Part shown: positions 23,234 to 36,056 of the stretch, in pieces | Numbering within the stretch: position 1 is the first letter of the stretch | Layout: every line of letters starts with the position of its first letter | DNA from: Candidatus Eiseniibacteriota bacterium | GTDB taxonomy: Bacteria; Eisenbacteria; RBG-16-71-46; CAIMUX01 | Direction: 5' to 3' | DNA length: 64,000 nucleotides | Assembly (NCBI GenBank): GCA_016712505.1 | Contig: JADJQY010000002.1 | Coordinates: 254,203-318,202, forward strand | The notes under the pieces: model-generated | The model's input: the letters and a program-made list of their open reading frames with translations, nothing else | Databases searched by the model: none | Told to the model about the DNA's origin: nothing | Made by a program: the position numbers and the translations under genes

Positions 23234-23599
23234 GTGGAGGCAAGCTCCCAACGCAGGGCGCGGCTCGTAGAGGACGGCGTGAGTTTCGATGCGGCAGTCC
23301 AGAAGGGTAAGCAGCTCTTCGCCACCTACCGCGGGCGACAGAAGTTAGCCCAGGCGCGGGAGAAAGCCGACCGGATCCGGACCGCCGCCGAGGCGATCCT
23401 GCGTGGCGCCCACGGGTCGTTCGAGGCGACGCGGGAAGCCGTGGCCCAGATGCTCACGGGCGAGGCGAGCGGCACTCACTTCCAGACGGTGCACCGAAAG
23501 CTCCAGTCCGTTGAACCGGCGGACTTCGAGAGCGTTCAGGACCATGCGGCCCTCGCGGAGTACCTGGCGACCCCCGCGGAGGAAGCGGACGGAGAGTGA
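23234..23599 (+). CDS. hypothetical helical protein, coupled to the downstream ImmA/IrrE peptidase
   Basis: A 121-aa ORF. Its stop overlaps the next start (GTGA). No HTH signature was recognised. Confidence 0.4.
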   Translation: MEASSQRRARLVEDGVSFDAAVQKGKQLFATYRGRQKLAQAREKADRIRTAAEAILRGAHGSFEATREAVAQMLTGEASGTHFQTVHRKLQSVEPADFESVQDHAALAEYLATPAEEADGE

Positions 23600-24399
23600 G
23601 TCTGGAGCATCCGAGGGCTCGCGGAAGGGCGCGCCAGCGCATCGCGGAGTTCGGCATTCAAAGCCCGGAGGAGATCGACCTCGAGGCCCTCGCCGCCGCG
23701 CGCAACGTTCTCGTTCGAGAAGCCGCCCTGGCGGGGGCACAGGCCCGATTGGTGCGGAGGAAGAGGGGAGGGGTGATCCGGGTCCACGCTGGCCTCGGTT
23801 CGCTGGGCCAGAAGCGGTTCTGCGTGGCACACGAACTCGGTCACCTCCTGCTGCACGAAGGGGTGGATCAGTTGGCGTTCTGCTCCTCGACCGACATGCT
23901 CCCGGGTTACCGTGCGCGGCCTGAGGAGCCGGAGGCGAACGCCTTCGCCGCAGACCTCCTGATGCCAGAGCGGATGTTCCTCGACGCCTGCCGAGGCGAA
24001 CGGCCGACCTTCGGCCTCTTGGCCGGCGTCGCGGAGTCGTTTCGGGTGACGCTCTCGGCGATGGCCTTTCGGTACGTGGAACTCGGCGTTCGGGTCTGTG
24101 CTGTGGCTCACTCTGAAGAGGGCCACATCCGTTGGTCGAAGGCGGCGGGGGATTTCCGGATTCGGCTTCGTGAGTGGGGAAGCCGGCTCGATGGTCGGAC
24201 CCGTGCTTCCGACTTCTTTGGAGGCAGAACCCGGAGAACGAACGAGGAGGACGTGCCGGCGGAGGCCTGGCTGGATGACCACCGCGTGGAGGCGCGCTGG
24301 ACGATCCGTGGAATCATGATCCCGATGCCGACCTACGACAGCACCCTGAGCCTCCTTTGGGTCGTGGATGGGTCGGAGCTGGATGCATGTGGGGCATGA
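23596..24399 (+). CDS. ImmA/IrrE family metallo-endopeptidase (COG2856-type)
   Basis: HEXXH in FCVAHELGHLLLHEG, followed by EEPEANAFAADLLMPERMF, the typical third-ligand and family motif. Confidence 0.8.
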   Translation: MSLEHPRARGRARQRIAEFGIQSPEEIDLEALAAARNVLVREAALAGAQARLVRRKRGGVIRVHAGLGSLGQKRFCVAHELGHLLLHEGVDQLAFCSSTDMLPGYRARPEEPEANAFAADLLMPERMFLDACRGERPTFGLLAGVAESFRVTLSAMAFRYVELGVRVCAVAHSEEGHIRWSKAAGDFRIRLREWGSRLDGRTRASDFFGGRTRRTNEEDVPAEAWLDDHRVEARWTIRGIMIPMPTYDSTLSLLWVVDGSELDACGA

Positions 24400-24638
24400 C
24401 ACGGACCGGTGTCGCGGGTGGGTGCGGCGGCGCGGCACGTCCTCTGAGCTGCTGGGCAATTGAAGTGGGTACTCTTTTTCTTGGGAGATTCACTTGACAA
24501 CCGAACCGCGCGGGAGGAGCGTATTGCACGCGACCCCAAGCGTCGTCGCGGCCACACCGGGTACCCGCCCGATGCCTTCGTGAACGTGGGCGCGCCGCGG
24601 CGCTGACGCCGCGCACCGAAGAGCGGAGGCATGGCACC

Positions 24639-24749
24639 ATGCCAGGCAAGTTCGAGCTCAAGAGGAGTTCCTCTGGCCAATTCATGTTCAACATCAAAGC
24701 AACCAATGGTGCCTCTTCCGGCTCCCGTGTGGGTGGATTTGCTGACTGA
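24639..24749 (+). pseudogene. YegP/DUF1508-like gene truncated by the ISL3 insertion
   Basis: GGAGG RBS, then MPGKFELKRSSSGQFMFNIKATNG, which matches the start of the YegP-type repeat (kFEl.k...GqfrFnLkA.NG). After about 24710 the reading runs into the ISL3 inverted repeat and stops. Confidence 0.5.
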
Positions 24750-26076
24750 TCTGAAGGGGTGATACGGTCCCGATCGGGCAAGCACCCGAGGGAGGGACCG
24801 AAGATGGACGACAAGACTCTGTACGCCACGTTGTTGGGCCTGACTGAGCCGTGGGGAGTCGAGAAGGTGGAGCTGAAGCTGGCTGCCGGAGAGGTCCACA
24901 TCTACGTTGCCCTTCCCCCGAAGGAGCTCTGGGTTTGTCCGGAGTGTCTGGAACGAGCTCCGATCCATGACCATCGGGAGCGCACCTGGCGCCACCTCGA
25001 CACCTTTCAGTATCGGACGATTCTTCACGCCCGAGTGCCCCGCCTGAGCTGCCCCAACCACGGGGTGAAGCAGATCCGCGTGCCCTGGGCCGAGGACGGC
25101 TCGAGATTCACCTCGCTCTTCGAGGCTTTGGCCATCGACTGGATGAAGCAAGCTTCCATCTCCGCCGTGGCCACGCGCCTGCATCTGACCTGGGATGAGG
25201 CCGCTGGCATCCAGGACCGTGCGGTCCGTCGAGGCTTGGCCCGACGCAAGGCAGAACCGGTGCGCTACATCGGTATCGATGAAACGTCTTTCCAGCGCGG
25301 GCACAAGTACGTCACCGTTGTCTCCGACCTCGCGAAGCCACGAGCGCTCTACGTGGCCGACGATCGAAGGCGGGAGAGCCTGGACGGCTTCTGGGAGAGC
25401 ATGACTCCCGAGCAACTGCGCGCCATCGAGGGCGTTGCGATGGACATGTGGGAACCGTTCGTCGGTGCGGTCCGAGAGAGCATTCCGCGAGGCGCTGAAA
25501 AGATCGTCTTCGACAAGTTCCACATCGCCAAACACCTGAACGACGGCGTCGACCAGGTGCGCCGCCGAGAGCACCGCGCCCTCCTTGCGCAAGGCAACGG
25601 CTGGCTCAAGGGCACGAAGTACGACTGGCTCCGCAACCCAGCCCGGTTCAGCCTGTCGGAATGGCGAAAGTTCCTTCCCAGGGCTCGCCGCGGCCGCCTG
25701 AAGACGGGGCGTGCCTGGAGCCTCAAAGAGGAATTCATGCGGTTCTGGGACTACCGGTACCGTGGCGCCGCCGACCGCCACTTCAAGAGCTGGTATGCCT
25801 GGGCCGTCCGCAGCCGACTCGAGCCCATGAAGAAGGTCGCCAACATGATCAAGCGGTACTACGACAACATCGCGACCTACTTCACACTTCCGATCACCAA
25901 TGCTGCCGCCGAGGGCTTGAATGCAGCCATCCAGCGGGTCAAAGGCATGGCGCGTGGCTTCCGTAACCCCGAGCGCTTCCGGATGGCTATCTACTTCCAC
26001 TGCGGTGCCCTCGACCTGTACCCACGCTCATGCATGTTCACCCAATGAACTTAGCCACACGAAACCCGGAAGACCC
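24711..26076 (+). mobile_element. ISL3-family insertion sequence
   Basis: The terminal inverted repeat GCCTCTTCCGGCTCCCGTGTGG (24711..) matches the reverse complement of CCACACGAAACCCGGAAGACCC (..26076). It contains a single transposase ORF. No matching 8-bp flanks are present (CCAATGGT vs CGGATATG). Confidence 0.8.
24804..26048 (+). CDS. ISL3 family transposase
   Basis: An N-terminal zinc-finger region (CPECLERAPIHDHRERTWRHLDTFQY...CPNHG), then a DDE domain (IGIDETSFQRGHKYVTVVSDL...). ATG 24804 follows a GGAGGG RBS. Confidence 0.9.
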   Translation: MDDKTLYATLLGLTEPWGVEKVELKLAAGEVHIYVALPPKELWVCPECLERAPIHDHRERTWRHLDTFQYRTILHARVPRLSCPNHGVKQIRVPWAEDGSRFTSLFEALAIDWMKQASISAVATRLHLTWDEAAGIQDRAVRRGLARRKAEPVRYIGIDETSFQRGHKYVTVVSDLAKPRALYVADDRRRESLDGFWESMTPEQLRAIEGVAMDMWEPFVGAVRESIPRGAEKIVFDKFHIAKHLNDGVDQVRRREHRALLAQGNGWLKGTKYDWLRNPARFSLSEWRKFLPRARRGRLKTGRAWSLKEEFMRFWDYRYRGAADRHFKSWYAWAVRSRLEPMKKVANMIKRYYDNIATYFTLPITNAAAEGLNAAIQRVKGMARGFRNPERFRMAIYFHCGALDLYPRSCMFTQ

Positions 26077-26325
26077 CGGATATGTTGCCCTCGCCTCAGC
26101 CGCTATCTGTGTTTCTGATGCGGATTTGGTTCACCTCGCCCAGCCACCGGGGATGGCTCTACAGCGAATCACTCCAGAGGGGTCACCTGCCGGCAGCGAT
26201 GCAAGGTCAAACGGGACAGGCCGCCCGAACAACACGCACCCAGCCTCACGGCGCATACCTGCCCGGCCAACCGCGCCATTCACCCAGCCACACGACGTTT
26301 CACGCGAGTCAGCGAAAGGGAGAGT

Positions 26326-27298
26326 GTGGGATGTGACGCCTGCAAATCCGGTGGCGATTTGACGCCCCAGCCGCTTGTGCAGATATCTACTTCTCGCCCG
26401 GGTGGGCGCGTTTTCGTGCCGTCACGGTACAACATCATCATATCCGGAACTGCTTCGACCCCGACTTTGATTCTCAACACCTACACAAGTGCTCTGATCG
26501 CGCTGGACGATGAAACAGACGAAGAAACAGTGCGGAGTATTCTAGCCCGCCCGCTCACGCGGGAGACGGACACTCCGGCCAGTGCAAAGACGATTGCGAC
26601 GCTATCTCGCAATGGCTTTCTCGTCGAGTCGGAGAGAGACGAGCGCGCGGAGATCAACCTGCGCGGGGAGCTCGGCAGGTATCGCTCTCGTCAAGTGATG
26701 CTGACGATCCTACCCACACTGCGGTGCAATTTTTCCTGCGACTACTGCTTCGAAGCCCATCCTGATGAGAACATGACTCCGGAGGTGGAAGACGGCATAG
26801 TCCGGTATGTCCAGAGCGTGCGCCGCGATTACGATTCTCTTTTCGTAACTTGGTTCGGTGGCGAGCCGCTCTTGCGCTTGAGCGTGATTCGGTCACTCGC
26901 GCCCAAGTTGCAAGCGGTGTTTTCGCACTACAGTTCGACAATTATCACGAATGGGTTCCTCATGCGCCGCCAAGCCTCACGGCACCTGCTAGACGCAGGC
27001 GTGTCCTCGGCCCAGATCACCATGGATGGGCCTGAATTGTTCCACGAGGCCAGGCGACCGCACGTTGATGGAGTGCCGACCTACGCTCGCATTCTCGAAA
27101 ACATCCACGATGCGTGCGAATTGGACCTGGCCGTATCGGTGCGTGTAAACATGGATCGGAAGATGGCGAAAGCACCTGAATCCATGGCTAGGCTCATCGC
27201 GGATGTTTATGACGCCAGCGGGGGCAGGGCAGTACCATACTTCTCTCCCGTATTCGGATACGAGAACGCACCCGACTTTTCTACGGGAAACAGGACTA
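26326..27298 (+). pseudogene. radical SAM peptide-maturase gene, 5' part (interrupted by IS630)
   Basis: CX3CX2C cluster motif LRCNFSCDYC and WFGGEPLL. The N-terminal ~100 aa precede the rSAM core, as in peptide-modifying rSAM enzymes. The reading is cut at the TA target 27297-27298. The true start may be GTG ~26377. Confidence 0.85.
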
Positions 27299-28360
27299 AA
27301 TCGCTTTGCATGATTCCGCAACACCACCTCGGCAGCCCAGCGGTTCGCGCTGCGTGTTCAACCGCCTGCTGAGGTACTGGAAGATCGCTTCGAGCAGGTC
27401 GATCATCGTCTTCTTGTCGTGGTTGCGGGTGACGTTGTCGTGCACGTCTTTCCAGAGCCGCTCGATCCGGTTCTCCTGGGGACAGTAAGGAGGCAGGAAG
27501 TGCAACTCGATCCGCCCGCCGAGCTCCCGCAGCGCCTTCTCGACCCAGCGGCTCTTGTGGATCACGTAGTTGTCGAGGATGAGGTGGATTGTCCTGGTTC
27601 GGTGATAGATCGAGGCCAGAAGATGAAGCAGACGGACGAAGAGCCAGCTCGCTTTCCGGTCGCCTTCGACGTAGATCAGTCGACCCTGGGCATGGTCATA
27701 TGCGCCAGCCAGGTAGCGCTTCTCGTTCCGACCCGGAGTCTCGACGTAACGCTGCTGCCCCCGCAGCGTCCAGTCCGGTCCGATCCGCGGGTTCTTATGG
27801 ATGTCGATCTCGTCGACGAAGAGCACGACCTCGCGGCGGGCACGGTGGGCGGCCAAGGCGCGCAGCTCGGCGATCCGATCCTCGCGCCGACGGCGGCTCC
27901 AGGGGCATCGGACGAACGGTCGCGCCCGCTTGAGCACCACACCGAGAGAGCGCATCACCTTGCTCAGGTGCCCAAGCGAGAGCCGAACGTTCAGTTCTTT
28001 CGCAATCACCTGAGCCAAGACCTCGAGCGACCAAGTGGATCGTTGAAAGCCATGATCAGCCGGTCGGCCGACCACGATCTGGAGGATTCCGCCGCGAACG
28101 TCTTCGTCGACCTTGAGCGACCCGTTCTCCGTCCGCCGATCCAGCAGGCCCTGCTCCCCTTCGGCGCGGAAGCGAAGGGCGACTCTCCAAGCGGTCGATG
28201 GGGCGCAACCCAGGGCCATCGCGGCGGCGTGTGCGCTCAACCCTTCCGCCATCTTCAAAACCAAGCGGCAGCGGATCCGAAAATCGGCATTGCGGGTCTT
28301 CTGACTGGCTCGGATAATGCGGCGTCGGATCGGACGGGAAAGACGTCCGAGATCGAACAT
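27296..28360 (-). CDS. IS630 family transposase
   Basis: An HTH N-terminus, a DDE domain, and the family-typical LPPYCPQENRIERLWKDVH. The ORF reads through the inverted repeat. Its TAG stop is built from the TA duplication plus one host base. Confidence 0.9.
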   Translation of the reverse strand: MFDLGRLSRPIRRRIIRASQKTRNADFRIRCRLVLKMAEGLSAHAAAMALGCAPSTAWRVALRFRAEGEQGLLDRRTENGSLKVDEDVRGGILQIVVGRPADHGFQRSTWSLEVLAQVIAKELNVRLSLGHLSKVMRSLGVVLKRARPFVRCPWSRRRREDRIAELRALAAHRARREVVLFVDEIDIHKNPRIGPDWTLRGQQRYVETPGRNEKRYLAGAYDHAQGRLIYVEGDRKASWLFVRLLHLLASIYHRTRTIHLILDNYVIHKSRWVEKALRELGGRIELHFLPPYCPQENRIERLWKDVHDNVTRNHDKKTMIDLLEAIFQYLSRRLNTQREPLGCRGGVAESCKAI

Positions 28361-28495
28361 CGTGAGACCTCCTTGTCGTCGGTTGGGACCAACAACAGAC
28401 TGGCAGGTGAGGTCTTACGGCTTCTAGGCTTGATCTTCATCCCCGCACCCGGGCATCCTCAGGGGAATCGCTATTTTGAATCATGCAAAGCGATT
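27299..28495 (-). mobile_element. IS630-family insertion sequence with TA target-site duplication
   Basis: Perfect 18-bp terminal inverted repeats: AATCGCTTTGCATGATTC (27299-27316) and GAATCATGCAAAGCGATT (28478-28495). TA flanks both ends, at 27297-98 and 28496-97. Confidence 0.9.
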
Positions 28496-28988
28496 TAGCA
28501 ACCGCGAGTTTTCGGCTGCCGTAGAATCAATCTACAAGATTGCGCTACGAGACCGAGGGCGTCAGATTCGCTTGCCCAACCTCAAGAGCGATTCGTGCGG
28601 CGTCTGCATCGCCGTCAAGCCTGACTCATTCACGATCGCTCCTGACGGTACTCTTTACAAATGCTGGGAAGAACCCGGGGGCGCTGTCGATAAGCCATGC
28701 GGCCACATTCTTCGCGACATGCGATCTCCTGCAGAACTGTCCCGGGATCTTGCGTGGGTCAATTGGAAAGAATGGCAAAGTGACGAGTGCCAATCTTGTT
28801 CCTACTTGCCAATGTGTATGGGTGGTTGCACGCGCGTCGTGCAATCCACAAACAGAATTGGGGACAAGTACAGCGAGACGTGCGAGCATTGGTTCAGCTG
28901 GGTTCCGATGGTCGCACGCCTTCGGTATCACCATCAGTCAGCAAAGAGCGAGCCACTAGAGGAGGAGGTGTTGCTTGAAGATCATTGA
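28496..28988 (+). pseudogene. radical SAM maturase gene, 3' part encoding the SPASM domain
   Basis: CGVC...PDGTLYKC, plus the exact SPASM signature CX2CX5CX3C in CQSCSYLPMCMGGC. The reading frame is continuous with 26326..27298 after IS removal. Confidence 0.85.
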
Positions 28989-29221
28989 TGGCACTGATCT
29001 CGACCGAACGGACAAAGTACTGCCTGGACATATGTCGTTACTGGGTGGCGCTGGGAACATGGCGTGGCAACATAGTTGCTGCACATCGATGCACAGTTGC
29101 GGGGTGGACCTACCAAGAAGGGACTAGTCAGTGTCCGGGCTCACTGTGTATCTCGGAACACTGTACAGATATGTCTTGTACGGGGCATAGCTGCCTCAAT
29201 TTGAGCTGTCCACTACACTGA
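28985..29221 (+). CDS. 78-aa Cys-rich peptide, candidate RiPP precursor
   Basis: The start (TTG 28985 / ATG 28988) overlaps the maturase stop (TGATG). There are nine Cys, and six sit at residues 50, 55, 60, 65, 70 and 75 (QC PGSLC ISEHC TDMSC TGHSC LNLSC PLH). The stop overlaps the next ATG. Confidence 0.5.
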   Translation: MMALISTERTKYCLDICRYWVALGTWRGNIVAAHRCTVAGWTYQEGTSQCPGSLCISEHCTDMSCTGHSCLNLSCPLH

Positions 29222-29238
29222 TGCTTTTAGGAGGAAGC

Positions 29239-29745
29239 ATGACTCATCCAGTGTCTCGACGTGCATTCCTGCGCGTACTTCCTATGGGTTTGCTAGGTCT
29301 ATCAGCCTGTGCCTCGGATGGGAGCCGGAGGATCAGCGGACCTGGTGAGTTCACGCCCGCGACGTCTAGTTCTCCGGTGGATGTGCTGCAGCACTTGGCT
29401 AGTGCTACGACGGCAGTAGACGTTGATGTGTTTTCGACGCTTCTCGCGCACGACTATAGGCAATCGTGCTCCCTCGGTGTTGAGCCATGGTCGAGGGACA
29501 CTGCGCTTGAATTGTTCCGAAAATATGCCGAGAACTCGCCGGGCGTGGTGCGACAGATGACGTTCGAACTACTCGGCCAGGCACGTGTCACGGAAGTTGC
29601 TGATGGATGGGTGATCGATGGACTGGAGCAGGTGGTGCATATCGAGATGCCCCTCGACGTCATCGATAGTCGCGTGCCTGTGCAGGCATGGGTGCGACGC
29701 GAGCAAGGCGTGTATGTGATCTACCGGTATGATTACACCAGCTAG
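29239..29745 (+). CDS. secreted lipoprotein, NTF2/SnoaL-like (putative)
   Basis: Strong RBS TAGGAGGAAGC before ATG 29239. A Tat-like signal with lipobox follows (SRRAFLRVLPMGLLGLSAC). It is a paralog of the next gene. Confidence 0.55.
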   Translation: MTHPVSRRAFLRVLPMGLLGLSACASDGSRRISGPGEFTPATSSSPVDVLQHLASATTAVDVDVFSTLLAHDYRQSCSLGVEPWSRDTALELFRKYAENSPGVVRQMTFELLGQARVTEVADGWVIDGLEQVVHIEMPLDVIDSRVPVQAWVRREQGVYVIYRYDYTS

Positions 29746-29747
29746 AA

Positions 29748-30274
29748 ATGAGGTGCGCAATGCAAGCATGGGTGTCTGCGATCGTTGGGTGCGTGCTCGT
29801 GGTGACTGCTGTAAACGCGGAGCCAGCCGAGCAGTTCTGCGCTGTGAATGCGCCTGAGGCGGTCCTGCAGTGTTTCGCAAGCGCCGTCACCAACCGGGAC
29901 TTCGTCCGAGCCGGAGAGCTATTCGCTGCAGAGTTTGTACGCGAGTACCTGCCGAACGAGAAGGGCACGGCCCCTATTCCACTTGGGAAGTCAGAATTTT
30001 TGGCTGCCGCGGAGTGGTTCATGGCTTCTGGCAATATCCAGAACCCGAGATACGAAGTGGCGTTTGGCGGTGTCGTGGTGCCTAACGCTCAGACGGGGGA
30101 TGGACGCTTCCGAATGTGACCTATACTGTACTAGGGCGCGGGAGAGACCAGTCTGGAAAGATGGTCGACATTAATGCGTCGAACGGAACGGTGACGGTGG
30201 AGGTTGTTCGTCTGGATCAGCCGGTGCCGCATTTCGTCATGACCCGATGGACGGAGTCTCAGACGGGCAAGTGA
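29748..30274 (+). CDS. secreted NTF2/SnoaL-like protein, paralog of 29239..29745; apparent single-base frame break
   Basis: Signal peptide MRCAMQAWVSAIVGCVLVVTAVNA. The shared motif is PEAVLQCFASAVT vs PVDVLQHLASATT. ORF 29748..30119 continues sensibly (GGWTLPNVTYTVLGRG...FVMTRWTESQTGK) if G5 run 30095-30099 were G6. Confidence 0.5.
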
Positions 30275-30540
30275 CAACGTCGAAGGGTTCCGCTGTGGCG
30301 GCTTCCGCGATCCTGCGCCAGACGCATTCTCGCCCCCCCCGGGGTACCCGGAGATCGCATTGGAAAATTCCAGGCCCCGATGTCGGTGGTTGGCGCGATG
30401 TCTCGGCCGTCTGACGGTACCTCGACGCGATTTGTTTCAGGCCACATCACGGGGCGGTGGACAGCAGGGGTTAGCTGCCGGTCGCGGCGGAATCGCGGAT
30501 CATAGACTGGCAGGGTAGGTTATCGTCACAGGTGGAAGAC

Positions 30541-30671
30541 TCAGAACGGGACCTTGTGACTCGCACTCTCCGACGTCCTCCGCACCCGCTTGTCGTAGAT
30601 CTGCGTTGTTTGCGGATTCTTGTGCCCCAAGAGGAGCTGCACCTCCTCGAGGGGCACACCGCCTTTGAGGA
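30541..30671 (-). pseudogene. tyrosine recombinase fragment, C-terminal end
   Basis: LLKGGVPLEEVQLLLGHKNPQTTQIYDKR carries the LLGH....TT..Y box with the catalytic Tyr. It abuts the IS66 left end. Confidence 0.7.
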
Positions 30672-30710
30672 GTATGCGCCAAGTGAACCACACCCCCCTC
30701 CCGACACCGA

Positions 30711-32375
30711 TCAGGAAGTGCGTGACTCCACTTCCGGTCGCCAGCGGGTTGGCAGGAGCCGCTCGTAGTCCTCGACTGTTGTCGCCTTCGGCAGTTCCGT
30801 GAACAGGTGGCTGAGATAGCCGTAGGGCTCGAGGTTGTTCGCCCGCGCCGTCTGGATCAGGCCGTAGAGGTTGGCGCTCGCCTCGGCGCCGTGCACCGTG
30901 TCCGAGAACAGCCAGTTCTTCCGGCCGATCGCGAACGGACGGATCGCGTTCTCCATCAGGTTGTTGTCGATCTCGAGTCGGCCGTCGTCGAGGTAACGGA
31001 GCAAGGAGTTCCACTGCTCCGAGGCGTACGAGATCGCCCGGCCGACCAAGCTCGTCGGCGGTACGTCTCCCTTGCTCGCATCCAACCACGCTTTCATCTC
31101 GGTCAAGATCGGGCCGGCCAGCACTTCGCGCGCCGCCTTCCGTGCGGGCGGATCCTGACCTCGGATGTCCCGCTCGATCCGGTACAGCTTCTGGATGTAG
31201 GCCATCCCCTGGTGAGCCTTCGACCGCCCCTTGATTGCCTGCTTCGCGCCAGCCTGCGCCTTCAACGCCTCATCGAACTTCCGCCGCACGTGGGCCATGC
31301 AGCCGACGCGGACCACCTTCGGGTTCGCGAAGCACCCGTTGTAGCCGGAGTACCCGTCGACCTGCACGAACCCCTCGAACCCCTGGAGGAGGCGCTCGGC
31401 TACCTCGCCGCCCCGCGTGGGGTCGTAGTCGAACAGCAGGATCGGTCGCTCCCGCGGACCACCCAGCCGACCCCAGAGGAAGGACTGGCTCTGGGCCGTC
31501 TTGCCGCTCTCCTTCAGCACCTGCACCCGCGTCTCGTCACAGTGGACGATGTCGTAGGCGAGCAGGTCGTCGTTCAGCAGGTTGATCACTGGCCGGACCA
31601 GCCGCCCGACGGCGATCATCCAGTTCGCCATGGTGGTGCGGGAGAGCTCGACCTCGACCCGCTCCCAGATCGCTTCCTGGCGATAGAGCGGGAGGGCGTC
31701 GCAGTACTTGGCCACCGCGATCTGGGCCAGGAGCGAAGGCGAGGCCATGCTCTTCGGGATCGGCTGCGGTGGAAGCGGCGCGATCCGTACGCCGTTCTCG
31801 CACCGCGGACAAGCGTACTTCGGTCGGACATTCTGGATCACCCGGACGGTGGCCGGGATGAACTCCAGTTGCTCGCTCGACTCCTCACCGATCTGCTCGA
31901 GCGGAGTCCCGTCCTGCGGGCAGATCTTCTCGTGCTCCCGTAGGTCGTGAACCACCCGTCGGCGCTCCATCCAGGCAGGAAGCGGGCGTCGTCCCCGCCG
32001 ATGACGCGGCTTGGCGCTCTCGGGACTCGCCGCGTCGCTGTCGCCCGCCTCGGGATCTGCGTCGAGGGTCGCGGGATGCGCCGCATCCTCCGTCTCGCCA
32101 TTGGCCAGGATCTCCGGCTCGTTGAAGAGCTGGAGCTGATCCTGGCTCGAACGTTCACTGCTCGGCCCGAAGCGCTTCCAGAGGTAGAGGCGAAGACGTT
32201 CGCGCAGCCGCTCGATCTCTGCCTGCTCGGCGATCAGCGCCGCCGTTTTCGCGTCCAGAGCGGCATTCGTGGCATGAAGCGTCGAGTGCAGGACGGCGCA
32301 CTCCGCCCGCGCTTGCAGGAGTAGTTGTTGCAGTACCGCGACGTCGTTGGGTAGGGGTTGGAGGTCCGTCTCCAT
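30711..32375 (-). CDS. tnpC: IS66 family transposase TnpC
   Basis: Leucine-zipper N-terminus, a zinc-finger YACPRCENG, and a DDE core (DETRVQV... DGYSGY...). Confidence 0.92.
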   Translation of the reverse strand: METDLQPLPNDVAVLQQLLLQARAECAVLHSTLHATNAALDAKTAALIAEQAEIERLRERLRLYLWKRFGPSSERSSQDQLQLFNEPEILANGETEDAAHPATLDADPEAGDSDAASPESAKPRHRRGRRPLPAWMERRRVVHDLREHEKICPQDGTPLEQIGEESSEQLEFIPATVRVIQNVRPKYACPRCENGVRIAPLPPQPIPKSMASPSLLAQIAVAKYCDALPLYRQEAIWERVEVELSRTTMANWMIAVGRLVRPVINLLNDDLLAYDIVHCDETRVQVLKESGKTAQSQSFLWGRLGGPRERPILLFDYDPTRGGEVAERLLQGFEGFVQVDGYSGYNGCFANPKVVRVGCMAHVRRKFDEALKAQAGAKQAIKGRSKAHQGMAYIQKLYRIERDIRGQDPPARKAAREVLAGPILTEMKAWLDASKGDVPPTSLVGRAISYASEQWNSLLRYLDDGRLEIDNNLMENAIRPFAIGRKNWLFSDTVHGAEASANLYGLIQTARANNLEPYGYLSHLFTELPKATTVEDYERLLPTRWRPEVESRTS

Positions 32376-32410
32376 GCCGCGGACTTTAACAGATGTCGCG
32401 CGTCATCGCA

Positions 32411-32767
32411 TCACAGAACAGTTGCGTAGGAGAGTTTCCTGTGAGGTCGGAGCTTCGAGAGATCGTAGCCATCGAGCAGCCAGTTCAGCTCGCGCCCGGT
32501 AATCGCGGTGACTCCGTCGCTGCTCTGCTCCGGCCAGTAGACCCGCTGCTTCTCGTAGCGCTTGTACCAGACGACGAAGCCGTTGCCTTCCCAGTAGAGG
32601 ACCTTCACCTTGTCCCGGTGGCGATTGCGGAACACGTAGAGCGCCGGCTCGAACGGGCTGAGGCCCAGCGTGCCTTCGACCAGCAGGCTGAGTCCGTTGA
32701 TCGACTTCCTCAAGTCGACGGCGGTTTGGCAGAGGTAGACCCGAACGCCCTCGGCCGGGCGCATCAT
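32411..32767 (-). CDS. tnpB: IS66 accessory protein TnpB
   Basis: 118 aa. The sequence VYLCQTAVDLRKSINGLSLLV...LYVFRNRHRDKVKVLYW is typical of IS66 Orf2. ATGA overlap with tnpA. Confidence 0.9.
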   Translation of the reverse strand: MMRPAEGVRVYLCQTAVDLRKSINGLSLLVEGTLGLSPFEPALYVFRNRHRDKVKVLYWEGNGFVVWYKRYEKQRVYWPEQSSDGVTAITGRELNWLLDGYDLSKLRPHRKLSYATVL

Positions 32768-33198
32768 CGAACCGGCTCCGGCGCCGCCGGCCGGAGAGAG
32801 GCGAGCAGAGAGAGCAAGTCGGCATCCGGGGTCCAGAAGGATGGATTCTCGATCTCCACAATCACGCCGTTGGCAAAGCGGAGGCGAAGATCGGTGCGTG
32901 GAACCGGGGCGTCTTCCGCCAGGCGAACCTCCGAGAACATGGGCACGGAGGGATTCCTGGAAGCCGGACTCGCCACCACCCGCAGTGGTCGGCGATGCAC
33001 CGCTGCGGCTGGGGTCGTCGCGGTCAACGCGCCGAGCTGGGTCAGCCGATTGCGCCAGGTGTAGAGTTGTCGGCAGTCGAGGCCGTGGCGCGCGGCGTAC
33101 GCGGCGGTGGTGGTGCCGCTCCTGCGACAGGCTTCCAGGTGCTTGCGCCAGTGTTCTTGCTTCGCGGTCAGCCGGGCGGCGAGGACTCCTCGGGGCAT
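32764..33198 (-). CDS. tnpA: IS66 accessory protein TnpA
   Basis: An HTH-like region (GTTTAAYAARHGLDCRQLYTWRNRL) and its first position in the IS66 operon. Confidence 0.8.
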   Translation of the reverse strand: MPRGVLAARLTAKQEHWRKHLEACRRSGTTTAAYAARHGLDCRQLYTWRNRLTQLGALTATTPAAAVHRRPLRVVASPASRNPSVPMFSEVRLAEDAPVPRTDLRLRFANGVIVEIENPSFWTPDADLLSLLASLRPAAPEPVR

Positions 33199-33274
33199 GT
33201 TGCCCTCCTTTCCTGGAGGGCAATCTCGCGGATCGCGGGGGGCTATGGGAAGATGGGTTTCAGTTGGCGGTTAC

Positions 33275-33781
33275 GCCGATACATCGCCGAGAGCCTAATT
33301 CTCCGCACCCCCAGCTTTCTCGACCGCGAGTTGGGCCGCGCCCGAAAGAGCGGCCCGCTGGTGAGCCCCGCGTGCGCCACATACTCCCGGATCGCCTCCG
33401 CCGCCTCCACGTGGATTCCAATGGTGCGCTTTGACTTCCCCCGGCCCTTCTCCTGGACCTTGACCGTCGGGTCGTCCTCCTCGAAATGAAAGTCCGCCAC
33501 ATCGAGCAAACACCCCGTCCGGATGCGGGACCCCGTGAACAGGTAGAACTTGAGGATTGCCCGGTCCCGGTAGTGGAGGATGTCGCCGTCCGCCGGCGGG
33601 AGCTCCATCAGTTTTCGTGCGTTCCGTGCGCTGAGAGCTACGGTCTCATCAATCGGATCCGTTGAGGGCCGCTTCACGAAATCCTTGTGCGCCGGATTGT
33701 GGATCAGGATCGGGAGCTTGGACCCGGCTGCGGCCTCCCGGATGAACTCAAAGAGGCCAGAGACCGCCGAGATGCGGTGAT
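33275..33781 (-). pseudogene. tyrosine recombinase fragment, central part
   Basis: RISAVSGLFEF..., RDRAILKFYLFTGSRIRTGCLLDVADF (Arg-I region) and VKVQEKGRGKSKRTIGIH (beta-hairpin Lys region). It lies between the IS21-like and IS66 ends. Confidence 0.75.
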
Positions 33782-33866
33782 CCCCCGGCGGCCACCTCAA
33801 CTTCCTCCACTTGTGGCCGGGTCAACTTCCTCCACTTGAGCTCACGACGGGACGGCGGGGAGGATC

Positions 33867-34639
33867 CTATTCGCCCGAGCGCTTGCGCACAACCCGGGCC
33901 GCAGCTTCCTTCAGGCGCCAGCTCTTCCCCTCGAACTTGAGCAGGTGGCCGTGGTGCATCAGGCGATCGAGGAGGGGGGTGACGATGACCACATTGCCGA
34001 GCAGCTTCGCCCAGTCTTCGATCACGCGATTCGAGGTGATCAGGGTGGAGCCCTTCTCGTATCGCCCCATGAGGAGATCGGCTAGCTCGTCGCCGGCGTT
34101 CGCAGGCAGCTTTCGGAGGAAGAGATCGTCGATGATCAGCAACTCGATGCCCCGTAGCTGCGTCCGGAGCTTCCGGATCGTCCGAGTTCGCGGGCCTCGG
34201 TGACGTCCTCGATCAGTTCATGGGCCTCGCGGTAGAGCACGCGGTGACCACGCTCCACCGCGAGCAGGGCGATCGCCTTGGCCACGTGGCTCTTGGCCGT
34301 GCCGGGCGGCCCCAGGAGAATGGCATCTTCCCGATCCTCGATGAACTTACAAGTCGCGAGTTCGAGGATGTCGCGTCGCGGCAGACGAGGATTGTAGCTC
34401 CAGTCCAACTCGGCCAGGGTGCGGCGTTCGGTTAGCCCGGACAGGGCGTACTTACGATCCTGCAGTCGCGTGGATCGACGATCCAGCTCGTCCTGAACCA
34501 ACCGGGAGAACGCTTCCAGGAACGACATCTCGTGGCTCGCCACGTGGAGCGCTCGCGCTTCGATCGCTGCGCTCATTCCCGACAACCGCAGAGTGCGGAG
34601 CGCACTCTCCAGCTCAGTACGTGACATGGGCATCGGCAT
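33867..34639 (-). pseudogene. istB: IS21 helper ATPase IstB, frameshifted
   Basis: Walker A is LLGPPGTAKSH (ORF 34136..34639) and Walker B is LLIIDDL (ORF 33867..34142), and they lie in different frames. The break is near 34190-34215. Confidence 0.85.
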
Positions 34640-35479
34640 CCTCCGTCGAAGTGTGGCTTTGGGCGTGGTCCTCCCAGAACGATTGGTACTCCGCGATCGA
34701 GCGGATGGCCGCGCCTTCCTGGATCAGAGCGGGAACCGGGGTTGGGGTTCGGGCTGCTTGGCGTTCCAAGGCGTGCCGCACGGCCTTGTAGGATCCGCAT
34801 CCCGCTTCGAGGAACCGAGCACAGATCTCCTCGATCGCCGCACAGGAGCAGGTGCGAGGCAGGTTGGTCAGCCCATAGAGCGCTCGCTGGCCGGGACGGC
34901 CGAGGCGGGCGAACAAGGCGAGCGCCATCTCCTCTGTTCTCGGCCCGATCAGCGCGGCTTTGATCAGCGACAATTAGAACTCCCGGGAAAAATAGTTGTC
35001 GCTGATCACCCCTCCCCGTAGTCGACTTGGCACTCTTCTCCCGGGAGGAACTCCAAGACGTCGAACCGCTCCGGATCCCGACGCTTCAGCCGGGAGACGA
35101 TCCGCTTGACCGAGTTGTAGCCGTGCCCGAACTCGTGGATCCCGACCAGATCCTGATAGATCGACTGGGCGTTGCGGCCGAGTTGGACCTGCGCTTCGAT
35201 CCGCGTTCGGTGGCGTTCGCACGCCGAGACGATGGCCGAGGCGCCAGCCTGCGGCGAACCGGGAGCCGGTGGCCAGGGTGGAGGAAGTTGCTCCGAGCCG
35301 GTGGCCACCCCGGGGGAGTTTGGATCGCGGACGTAGCGCTGGATGGTCTTGCGATCCACACCCGTGCGGCGATCAATCTCCCGCTGACTGACCCCGCAAC
35401 CGGCCAGGGTCTCGATGGTTATCCGCAGGTGACTCTTCAAGACGTTCACTCCGATCCCCCTCTGGTTGGTGAGGGGCAA
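34614..35479 (-). pseudogene. istA: IS21 transposase IstA with internal deletion of the catalytic core
   Basis: The N-terminal HTH part ends at ..GEECQVDYGEG (35006..35479). The C-terminal part is 34614..~34960. Together they give about 270 aa, shorter than I recall intact IstA proteins to be, and I could not find the catalytic core between the two parts. The two parts are joined by a 48-bp palindrome. Confidence 0.75.
34961..35008. repeat. 48-bp palindromic sequence at the istA deletion junction
   Basis: TGATCAGCGACAA-ttagaactcccgggaaaaatag-TTGTCGCTGATCA, with perfect 13-bp arms and a partly self-complementary AT-richer centre around CCCGGG. Confidence 0.85.
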
Positions 35480-35588
35480 GGGGAACGTCCCGTCGTCGAT
35501 GCCCGGGAGTCGGGTCGATCTAGTTCAGCTCAGGTGGAGGAGTTTGACCCGGCCACGGATGGGGGAGTTTGGGTGGCCGCCAGGTGAT

Positions 35589-35868
35589 TGAGGGTTTTGG
35601 GCGCCTGGTCAAGCTCCTGGTCCAGAAACTCCCGCCAGGCCCGGACGTCGACCACCGTGGCGCCGAGAAGCCGGAACGACTCCTCGGGCCAGCGGATGCC
35701 AAGAAAGTCGACAAAGCCCATCACGGCGCGGCGGTACGAGCGCCGGGTGTTGAGTGCGTCGCTTCGGTTGACCCAGGCCTCGAACATGCCGGCGACGGAG
35801 CCGTAGAAGGTCTTGACCCGTTCACGGACGGCTGCCTTCGGGGTCGACGCGAGGCGTCGCGCTGTCAT
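35589..35868 (-). pseudogene. tyrosine recombinase fragment, N-terminal SAM-like domain
   Basis: TRRSYRRAVMGFVDFL...VVDVRAWREFL...APKTLNH. The reading is cut at the GTGAT duplication of the IS21-like element. Confidence 0.7.
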
Positions 35869-36056
35869 GCCCCATCAACCGCCCAGCTCGGGACGATCGG
35901 CGCTGCTCTGGACCTCCGCACGGGCCCCGAACCCCGCGTTGACCGCCCCGGGGGGCTGTGCTAGCGTCCCCAATCGCAAGCGTTTGCGGGGCCTGAAGTT
36001 GGTCCGGCGAGGGGGCCGGGACGGGGCGACCTGCGGACGGACGATGGAGGGATGGG

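Follow-up and report, generated by a model that had tools for sequence, protein, structure and literature searches.

An interrupted radical SAM/SPASM maturase gene

We analysed a 64,000-nucleotide stretch of the genome of a Candidatus Eiseniibacteriota bacterium (GenBank assembly GCA_016712505.1, contig JADJQY010000002.1, positions 254,203 to 318,202; hereafter the window), in which a gene for a putative peptide maturase of the radical S-adenosylmethionine (SAM)/SPASM type lies in two pieces on either side of an insertion sequence (IS) of the IS630 family. The maturase gene is followed on the same strand by a short cysteine-rich gene, which resembles the precursor gene of a peptide made by the ribosome and modified after translation (RiPP), and by two genes for NTF2-like proteins (Table 1). 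We refer to these four genes as the cassette.

As it stands, the open reading frame (ORF) of the 5′ fragment reads into the IS up to position 27372 and would thereby carry 24 foreign residues behind the 324 native ones. In-silico excision of 27299..28497, that is, of the IS together with one TA of its target-site duplication, brings ...FSTGNRT and SNREFSAAVES... together in frame, and the resulting ORF has 487 codons, from a GTG at 26326 to the stop codon at 28986-28988. An alternative start is on record, a GTG at 26416 (protein P0001, 318 aa); it lies 30 codons later and would leave 457 codons, not 487. The restored protein carries the CX3CX2C motif as CNFSCDYC (residues 134-141) and matches the Pfam Radical_SAM profile PF04055 with 50.7 bits (cut-off 29.5) over residues 129-270. 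Its C-terminal part matches the NCBIfam SPASM profile TIGR04085 with 50.5 bits (cut-off 27) over residues 361-453; here the signature CX2CX5CX3C is found as CQSCSYLPMCMGGC (residues 422-435), preceded by the upstream half-motif C-x13-G-x4-C (residues 361-380). The complete SPASM domain appears only upon excision. Pfam's own SPASM model did not match the restored protein at E ≤ 0.01.

Table 1. Features of the interrupted cassette and of the insertion sequence (positions in the window)
Feature	Position	Strand	Basis
Maturase 5′ fragment, residues 1-324: RRE-like domain and radical SAM core	26326..27298	+	ORF, Pfam, model
IS630 transposase ORF, 354 aa	27296..28360	-	NCBIfam IS630, Pfam DDE_3/HTH
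Left TA of target-site duplication; reads CTA with C27296	27297..27298		sequence
IS630-family insertion sequence, 1197 bp	27299..28495	- (transposase strand)	repeats, TA duplication, profile match
Left 18-bp arm of the IS terminal inverted repeat, perfect	27299..27316		sequence
Right 18-bp arm of the IS terminal inverted repeat, perfect	28478..28495		sequence
Right TA of target-site duplication; reads TAG with G28498	28496..28497		sequence
Maturase 3′ fragment, residues 325-487: bridging region and seven-Cys SPASM domain	28498..28988	+	TIGR04085, alignment A1
Precursor-peptide gene, apparently frameshifted	28975..29221	+	homology, profile scores
G4 run in precursor gene; minus one G gives one 81-codon ORF	29101..29104	+	frame comparison
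First NTF2-like (DUF4440-related) gene, intact	29239..29745	+	sequence, synteny
Second NTF2-like gene, apparently frameshifted	29748..30274	+	profile, codon usage, alignment
G5 run in second NTF2-like gene; a sixth G gives a single ORF of about 175 codons	30095..30099	+	alignment

A search of 5.8 billion protein sequences placed the nearest intact relatives at 41%, 40% and 36% identity, with lengths of 487, 502 and 479 aa; the closest of them (P0002) is, at 487 aa, exactly as long as the restored ORF. When these were aligned (alignment A1), the junction GNRT/SNREFS ran without a gap against ADLTWHEFS, ADLSWEDYS and ANITQREFS, and the restored protein agreed at every invariant column. Among these columns are those of all 10 cluster cysteines, including the seven of the SPASM domain (C361, C380, C422, C425, C431, C435 and C453). 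Because the junction is free of gaps and all invariant columns are kept, the excision restores the ancestral reading frame exactly. By its sequence, the gene is a predicted radical SAM/SPASM peptide maturase interrupted by an IS630-family element.

A preliminary description of this locus, made from the letters of the sequence, had placed the CX3CX2C motif in the 5′ fragment and the SPASM signature in the 3′ fragment. It had put a 1197-bp IS630 element with perfect 18-bp repeats and a TA at both ends between them, and it had proposed the excision used here and a restored ORF scoring as a radical SAM/SPASM protein. All of this was borne out, the element's coordinates to the base. No uninterrupted allele came to light: beyond the window's own 5′ fragment, which was the sole near-identical match among the 5.8 billion proteins, nothing was closer than 41%, and an exact 24-nt probe for the empty site had no match in metagenome contigs.

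In an AlphaFold model made for the 5′ fragment (predicted local distance difference test score, 86), residues 29-120 form three helices and four short strands in front of the radical SAM barrel, and the IS sits directly past the last barrel strand (303-308), ahead of the SPASM domain. The best Foldseek matches of the model were CteB, SuiB and SkfB, with about 290-310 of the 324 residues aligned and the N-terminal domain included. All three enzymes carry an N-terminal winged-helix-like RiPP recognition element (RRE) domain. At the level of the model, the N-terminal region is therefore predicted to be an RRE-like leader-binding domain. CteB, a thioether-forming enzyme, was the best match in the Protein Data Bank both by sequence (E 3e-8) and by fold (E 4e-11, about 300 columns).

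The position of the insertion bears on whether the split might be functional, with the two halves working as separate polypeptides, or with precise excision restoring the gene on demand. Loss of the IS and one TA would indeed restore the ORF exactly, and a possible TTG start for the 3′ fragment is present at 28476, within the IS end. Against this, the split cuts the radical SAM core off from the SPASM clusters, which form one chain in all intact relatives; no promoter-like site was found in a scan of 26000-30700; the transposase lies on the opposite strand; and the probable lesions in the precursor gene and the second NTF2-like gene, described below, would keep the cassette dead regardless. 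We regard a functional split or a reversible switch as very improbable. To judge from its genes, the cassette has been rendered dead in this genome by the IS insertion.

The insertion sequence, its target and its other copies

The terminal inverted repeats of the element, AATCGCTTTGCATGATTC, are perfect over 18 bp, and the arms differ from the next base on. When up to 3 mismatches were allowed, this 18-mer occurred in the window at the two IS ends only (0.01 matches in shuffled sequence), and the window holds one copy of the IS. A repeat finder extended the complementarity of the IS ends outward to 21 nt (CTA...TAG), so the original target was 5′-CTAG-3′, of which the central TA was duplicated; the insertion now reads GGAC-TA-IS-TA-GCAAC. 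Insertion at CTAG with duplication of TA is the published pattern for IS630 (PMC2577343, Table 1), and the use and duplication of this TA is a trait shared with IS630 and IS870 (PMC2577343, Table 1). In its other features, too, the element conforms to IS630 and the IS630/Tc1/mariner superfamily: it is about 1.2 kb long, within the usual range of about 1.1-1.4 kb, has short terminal repeats, and holds a single transposase gene (354 aa) of the DDE_3 type with N-terminal HTH domains. The insertion is of the cut-and-paste type at CTAG.

The transposase gene is the sole long ORF of the IS with coding-like composition, and an AAGGAGG stands ahead of its start. Its product scores 190.3 bits against the NCBIfam IS630 profile NF033545 (cut-off 100) and 88.8 bits against Pfam DDE_3; HTH_29 and HTH_23 are matched as well. 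Candidates for the DDE triad, as read from the sequence, are D183, D263 and E296, which fall inside the DDE_3 match. The stop codon of this gene, a TAG on the minus strand (27296-27298), lies outside the IS and is made up of the duplicated TA and the flanking G of the target. An internal TGA has become CGA in the window copy, and the ORF is 11 codons longer at this end (27296-27330) in consequence and runs across the terminal repeat. The seven other near-identical copies that we compared all stop at the internal TGA, 11 codons earlier, as do relatives at about 53-77% identity.

A comparable arrangement is on record for IS870 of Agrobacterium vitis, whose transposase takes its stop codon from the CTAG target, according to the passage of PMC13630536 that cites Fournier 1993. 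The likeness is confined to the window copy. We considered a target-derived stop as a trait of this IS family and rejected it: since the internal TGA serves as the stop in all relatives at about 53-77% identity, the target-supplied stop is an accident of one copy, a private stop loss, and, unlike in IS870, no design feature of the element.

The window's transposase falls in a cluster of ≥90% identity, among the members of which are a 343-aa form, present on 19 contigs (NCBI, JGI, ENA and Logan assemblies), and MBK8229086.1 from a Candidatus Eisenbacteria metagenome-assembled genome. Outside the cluster, the closest transposases reached 53-58% identity in genome assemblies; a single metagenome contig had one at 77%. 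Six complete copies of the IS were recovered outside the window, each exactly 1197 bp long, 99.3-99.4% identical and flanked as CTA-IS-TAG; together with the window's own, there are at least six distinct flank pairs. Given at least six distinct insertion sites, the window's included, the IS has moved in the past, and it is, by these sequences, a multi-copy and recently mobile element with a strict preference for CTAG.

Five contigs (L052, L125, L130, L131 and L133) have one IS flank in common (CGACACGACGAC-TA) and differ in the opposite flank. These mixed flanks stem either from chimeric assembly across the repeat or from recombination between IS copies, and the number of insertion sites counted on contigs of this kind is a lower bound. 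The chimeric-looking joins raise the question of whether the IS was put inside the maturase gene by an assembly error, through a false join at a repeated element. In the window, however, the two flanks are halves of a single gene, collinear and in frame, and are parted by exactly the IS and two duplicated bases of a CTAG target, a pattern that a mis-join would not yield. An artefact of this kind is, in our view, extremely improbable.

The preliminary description had drawn on the perfect repeats and the unbroken IS ORF for the view that the insertion was recent. These are poor indicators of age, as every copy of this IS has both. Moreover, the window copy is the most divergent of the eight compared, with five private substitutions, the stop loss among them.

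The precursor gene and the NTF2-like genes

The order seen in the window, a maturase gene followed by a Cys-rich precursor gene and two ORFs of about 165 aa, was found in six related loci, in which the maturase gene is followed by a Cys-rich ORF of 71-82 aa and then by two ORFs of about 140-170 aa. Homologous precursors stand directly behind the maturase in L001, L004 and L134. The precursors of this family begin with MKLVE, MDFIE or MTLVE and have acidic leaders. They have in common a [YH]-[SN]-C-x3-5-C unit, and towards the C-terminus their cysteines form an array with a spacing of about five; the most conserved unit of this array is C-x-x-H-x-C, with serine after the histidine in three of five precursors. 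When 1.84 billion cluster representatives were scanned in full by HMMER with the precursor profile, only four proteins came back, and the family is therefore very rare in that library.

In the window, the two parts of the precursor read in different frames. The leader reads in the frame of a TTG at 28975 (MKIIDGTDLDRTDK...HSCG; MKIIDGTDLDRTDK...QHSCCTSMHSCG), behind a strong Shine-Dalgarno sequence, GGAGGAGG, and this frame stops at 29127. The Cys-rich core reads in the frame of an ATG at 28988 (..CPGSLCISEHCTDMSCTGHSCLNLSCPLH), hereafter frame 2, and has the form C-PGSL-C-ISEH-C-TDMS-C-TGHS-C-LNLS-C, six cysteines at a spacing of exactly five. Removal of one G from the G4 run joins leader and core as ...MHSCGWTYQEGTSQC..., which compares with ...DSCHGTTYTGGC... 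of the homologue P0124. The 50-aa ORF that starts at 28975 was considered first as a rival precursor and later as noise; both ideas were dropped, because four precursors from outside the window show the leader there.

The frameshift was assessed with a profile built from P0123 and P0124 alone, both of which were found later than the frameshift hypothesis. Leader and core joined scored 20.3 bits, the core alone 16.7 and the frame 2 ORF alone 12.2. The joined score was reached with 1 of 300 shuffled leaders. The N-terminus that frame 2 itself supplies did not stand out from shuffled sequence, its score being reached in 208 of 300 cases. Based on these comparisons, we think it fairly likely that the precursor gene is truly frameshifted by a single-base indel (+1 G).

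Behind the precursor, the first NTF2-like gene starts at the ATG at 29239, preceded by AGGAGGA, and occupies the same position in all six related loci. A Tat-type motif (SRRAFL) and a lipobox (LSAC) in its sequence suggest an exported lipoprotein; both downstream proteins have Tat/lipoprotein or Sec signals. Neither accessory protein of the window was matched by Pfam, and among the homologues one, L001_142, passes DUF4440 (27.6 bits, cut-off 25.2), the others being weak. The window's genes were tied to these homologues by profile comparison (E 6.6e-9; 158 and 34.8 bits).

The second NTF2-like gene also appears to be broken. Its first frame (frame A, 29748-30119) spans only columns 26-111 of a 163-column profile (hhalign E 6.6e-9) and ends, at 30119, at two-thirds of the family length. 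Frame B is open from the G5 run to 30274, and its GWTLPNVTYTVL...HFVMTRWTE aligns with DGVWVLNGIDLII...FRIFKWEE of L001. Codon statistics for which the maturase was the sole training sequence gave the stretch past G5 scores of -11.2 (frame A), +1.9 (frame B) and -0.7 (frame C); in controls, in-frame windows averaged +7.2 and off-frame windows never rose above -1.6. The repaired protein scored 38.6 bits as compared to 34.9 unrepaired, a score reached by 15 of 500 shuffles. Other comparisons gave less: tblastn matches of the gene with its homologues were weak, hhalign aligned only 10 columns of the frame-B peptide, and a search for homologues of the repaired protein was without result. Taken together, the truncation against the profile, the codon usage and the shuffle test make the case for a frameshift, and we consider it likely that this gene is truly frameshifted by a single-base indel (-1 G).

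Decay of the cassette

For both genes, then, a single-G indel is probable, not proven, from the sequence. As both lie in runs of G, where long-read assemblies err, the rate of such breaks elsewhere is of interest. The long ORFs of the window (29.9 kb) contain 319 G/C runs of at least four bases with no frame break, and the 1.3 kb of the cassette contain five such runs, two of which coincide with shifts. Because so many comparable runs are unbroken, a homopolymer sequencing error is disfavoured.

The preliminary description held that one insertion, probably a recent one, had struck a cassette intact up to then. The part of this that concerns the maturase stands, for the gene has no lesion other than the IS; the rest finds no support in a precursor gene and a second NTF2-like gene that both appear frameshifted, nor in neighbouring genes that are broken. 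In its full form, this alternative has the cassette functional until one recent IS630 insertion and takes the two frameshifts as homopolymer errors or as weak homology that has been read too far. Several observations speak for it and weigh against further decay. A maturase free of other lesions fits a recent knockout, and the IS repeats and target duplication are perfect. Frame 2 of the precursor gene is an open ORF of 77 codons, the full expected length, and its ATG overlaps the maturase stop codon; an intact but divergent precursor in this frame would be compatible with the sequence. The statistics are modest both for the leader (p about 0.003-0.01) and for the C-terminus of the second NTF2-like protein (p = 0.03 at the sequence level, besides the 10 hhalign columns), and the family behind them is tiny, with four precursors and five accessory proteins from outside the window.

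Set against these are the leader homology found in the other frame and the advantage of the joined peptide over frame 2, the leader of which resembles its shuffles; the non-coding codon usage of frame A past 30099, where frame B is coding-like; and the 319 unbroken runs. Two neighbouring genes, for an IstB protein and an integrase, are broken too, the former outside any homopolymer. On balance, a single recent hit on a fully functional cassette is unlikely. We are instead quite confident of the reading in which the IS has knocked out a rare, uncharacterised RiPP cassette with further decay probable, an ordinary decaying cluster and not one fresh hit: given the probable further lesions in the precursor gene and the second NTF2-like gene, the cassette would be decaying among several insertion sequences and not freshly silenced.

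The surroundings are those of an island. Without the IS, the cassette (26089-30540) has a GC content of 57.6%; the remainder of the window has 67.3%, and the IS630 element 61.8%. This low GC content is consistent with a foreign origin, and the cassette is probably a horizontally acquired low-GC island in a high-GC genome. The region is variable and IS-ridden, and gene decay is normal in it. A related metagenome contig, 93% identical to the window over 23515-24561, a stretch that reaches the end of that contig, loses homology at 24561; what follows is a further copy of this IS630, interrupted by an IS256. No tRNA genes were found.

The cassette is bracketed by two further elements. Upstream, at about 24699-26088, lies an intact ISL3-family element with a 429-aa transposase and imperfect 34-nt terminal repeats; it ends about 240 bp before the maturase start and may have displaced the promoter region of the cassette. 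Downstream are IS66 genes (30711-33223, minus strand) with an intact tnpC (554 aa). A tyrosine-recombinase (Phage_integrase) gene lies on both sides of the IS66 genes (30541-30700 and 33246-33821, minus strand), with profile positions 4-121 and 139-166 on opposite sides, and appears to have been split by IS66; the IS66 ends and a target duplication were sought in the window and not found. Farther on, an IS21 IstB gene (33870-34639, minus strand) is frameshifted, with profile positions 3-147 in one frame and 143-235 in another. As this shift lies outside any homopolymer run, it points to real decay in the island. Three short ORFs at 34617-35874 (minus strand), possible fragments of a broken IstA, had no transposase-family match.

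The related contig with 93% identity to the window is L126 (1-3670; also L052, L125 and L129), and its IS256-type element sits in the last 15 bp of the IS630 copy. That copy adjoins an M78-peptidase gene, which is found ahead of the island in the window as well, and no RiPP cassette is present in L126.

Relation to known RiPP systems and proposed function

For class assignment, the restored maturase was scored against curated NCBIfam subfamily models, two of which (TIGR04463 and CefB) it matches over most of its length and none at the curated cut-off. It scored 213.6 bits with TIGR04463 (rSAM_vs_C_rich; residues 35-453, cut-off 525), and its relatives P0002 and P0003 score 215-219 bits with the same model. 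CefB NF038107 gave 146 bits (residues 33-440, cut-off 600), Clo7bot 179 (cut-off 600), geopeptide 164 (cut-off 400) and FlmE/OhkG 163 (cut-off 500), and the scores were lower with PapB NF047865 (81.6, cut-off 340) and the SCIFF model TIGR03974 (54.6, cut-off 425). The intact relatives P0002-P0004 and P0121-P0124 likewise stay below the curated subfamily cut-offs. On the side of the precursor, the better scoring of just two NCBIfam models touched by the window peptide was CefA NF038108 (cut-off 30 bits), with 15.3 bits for the frame 2 peptide and 12.8 for the repaired precursor; the relatives scored 9.5-12.2 bits, apart from P0121, which had no match.

Two groups of known systems are instructive. 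The Cef system and TIGR04463 share with the cassette a maturase that aligns end to end and a core with six cysteines at every fifth position, a spacing that the window core keeps strictly and its relatives at about 4-6 residues; they differ in that all scores of the window fall far under the cut-offs (525, 600 and 30 bits). The searched literature made no mention of the Cef system, so its chemistry is uncharacterised there, and a literature search for OhkG/FlmE was without result. The thioether-forming enzymes CteB with SCIFF, and those of the PapB-type ranthipeptides, share the order of RRE-like domain, radical SAM core and seven-Cys SPASM domain, as well as a Cys-rich precursor encoded beside the enzyme; the leader and core of the window precursor are unlike theirs, and two exported NTF2-like genes belong to the cassette. 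SCIFF-family thioether RiPPs with periodic Cys arrays include freyrasin and thermocellin, with S-C beta and S-C gamma links, and CteB/SCIFF, QhpD and PapB serve as model examples of Cys-to-carbon cross-linking (PMC10114670).

By analogy, the acidic leader of the precursor of about 80 aa would, in an intact system, be bound by the RRE-like domain of the maturase. The radical SAM core would cleave SAM to a 5′-deoxyadenosyl radical, which would abstract hydrogen, and the two auxiliary SPASM clusters would help to link the six core cysteines to a carbon of nearby residues. The likeliest product would be a ladder of small rings closed by thioethers, on the lines of SCIFF and ranthipeptides. The two exported NTF2-like proteins would accompany the peptide, and a role in binding or immunity is a guess. 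Both the thioether-ladder chemistry and the NTF2-like role are drawn purely from family resemblance, which counts against this part of our proposal. In the window, the IS630 element has entered the TA of CTAG at codon 324/325, between the last barrel strand and the SPASM domain, and has parted the catalytic core from the auxiliary clusters.

We also entertain, as a tentative and rather doubtful idea, that the cassette represents a distinct, very rare RiPP class, made up of the maturase, a precursor of the Cys-every-fifth type with C-x-x-H-x-C, and two exported NTF2-like proteins, in which the cross-link chemistry or the NTF2-like pairing is possibly unlike that of known sactipeptides and ranthipeptides.

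For this genome the finding is routine, as ISs often knock out accessory genes and insertion of IS630 at CTAG is textbook behaviour. The event itself has little novelty; that of the cassette, as a very rare and uncurated relative of Cys-rich radical SAM/SPASM RiPP systems, is moderate. What the locus offers is a clean worked example of an insertion proven by base-exact in-silico excision and, with adjacent small genes that seem to have decayed too, a caution against assuming one recent hit. An annotation of the locus should mark three genes as probable pseudogenes, those of the maturase, the precursor and the second NTF2-like protein, and the transposase as a stop-loss variant. The intact metagenome copies (the P0002, L001 and L004 loci) are the ones to characterise for a matured peptide of the Cys-every-fifth type.

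Two more distant maturases show other arrangements. In L122 (811-2340; P0006), the maturase ORF reads through, in frame, to the Cys-rich precursor that belongs to it (...MDFIVENLPVYDFSVTSLGYCEGITCSAFGACKINCGKVNCAILSCGTMAFTPTGK), which is either a natural enzyme-substrate fusion or the result of a lost stop codon. In L121 (3958-4299), a 113-aa ORF with an MKVLDK-like leader start and cysteines spaced by 6-7 residues stands behind the distant maturase P0005, and the wider maturase clade may serve several precursor periodicities.

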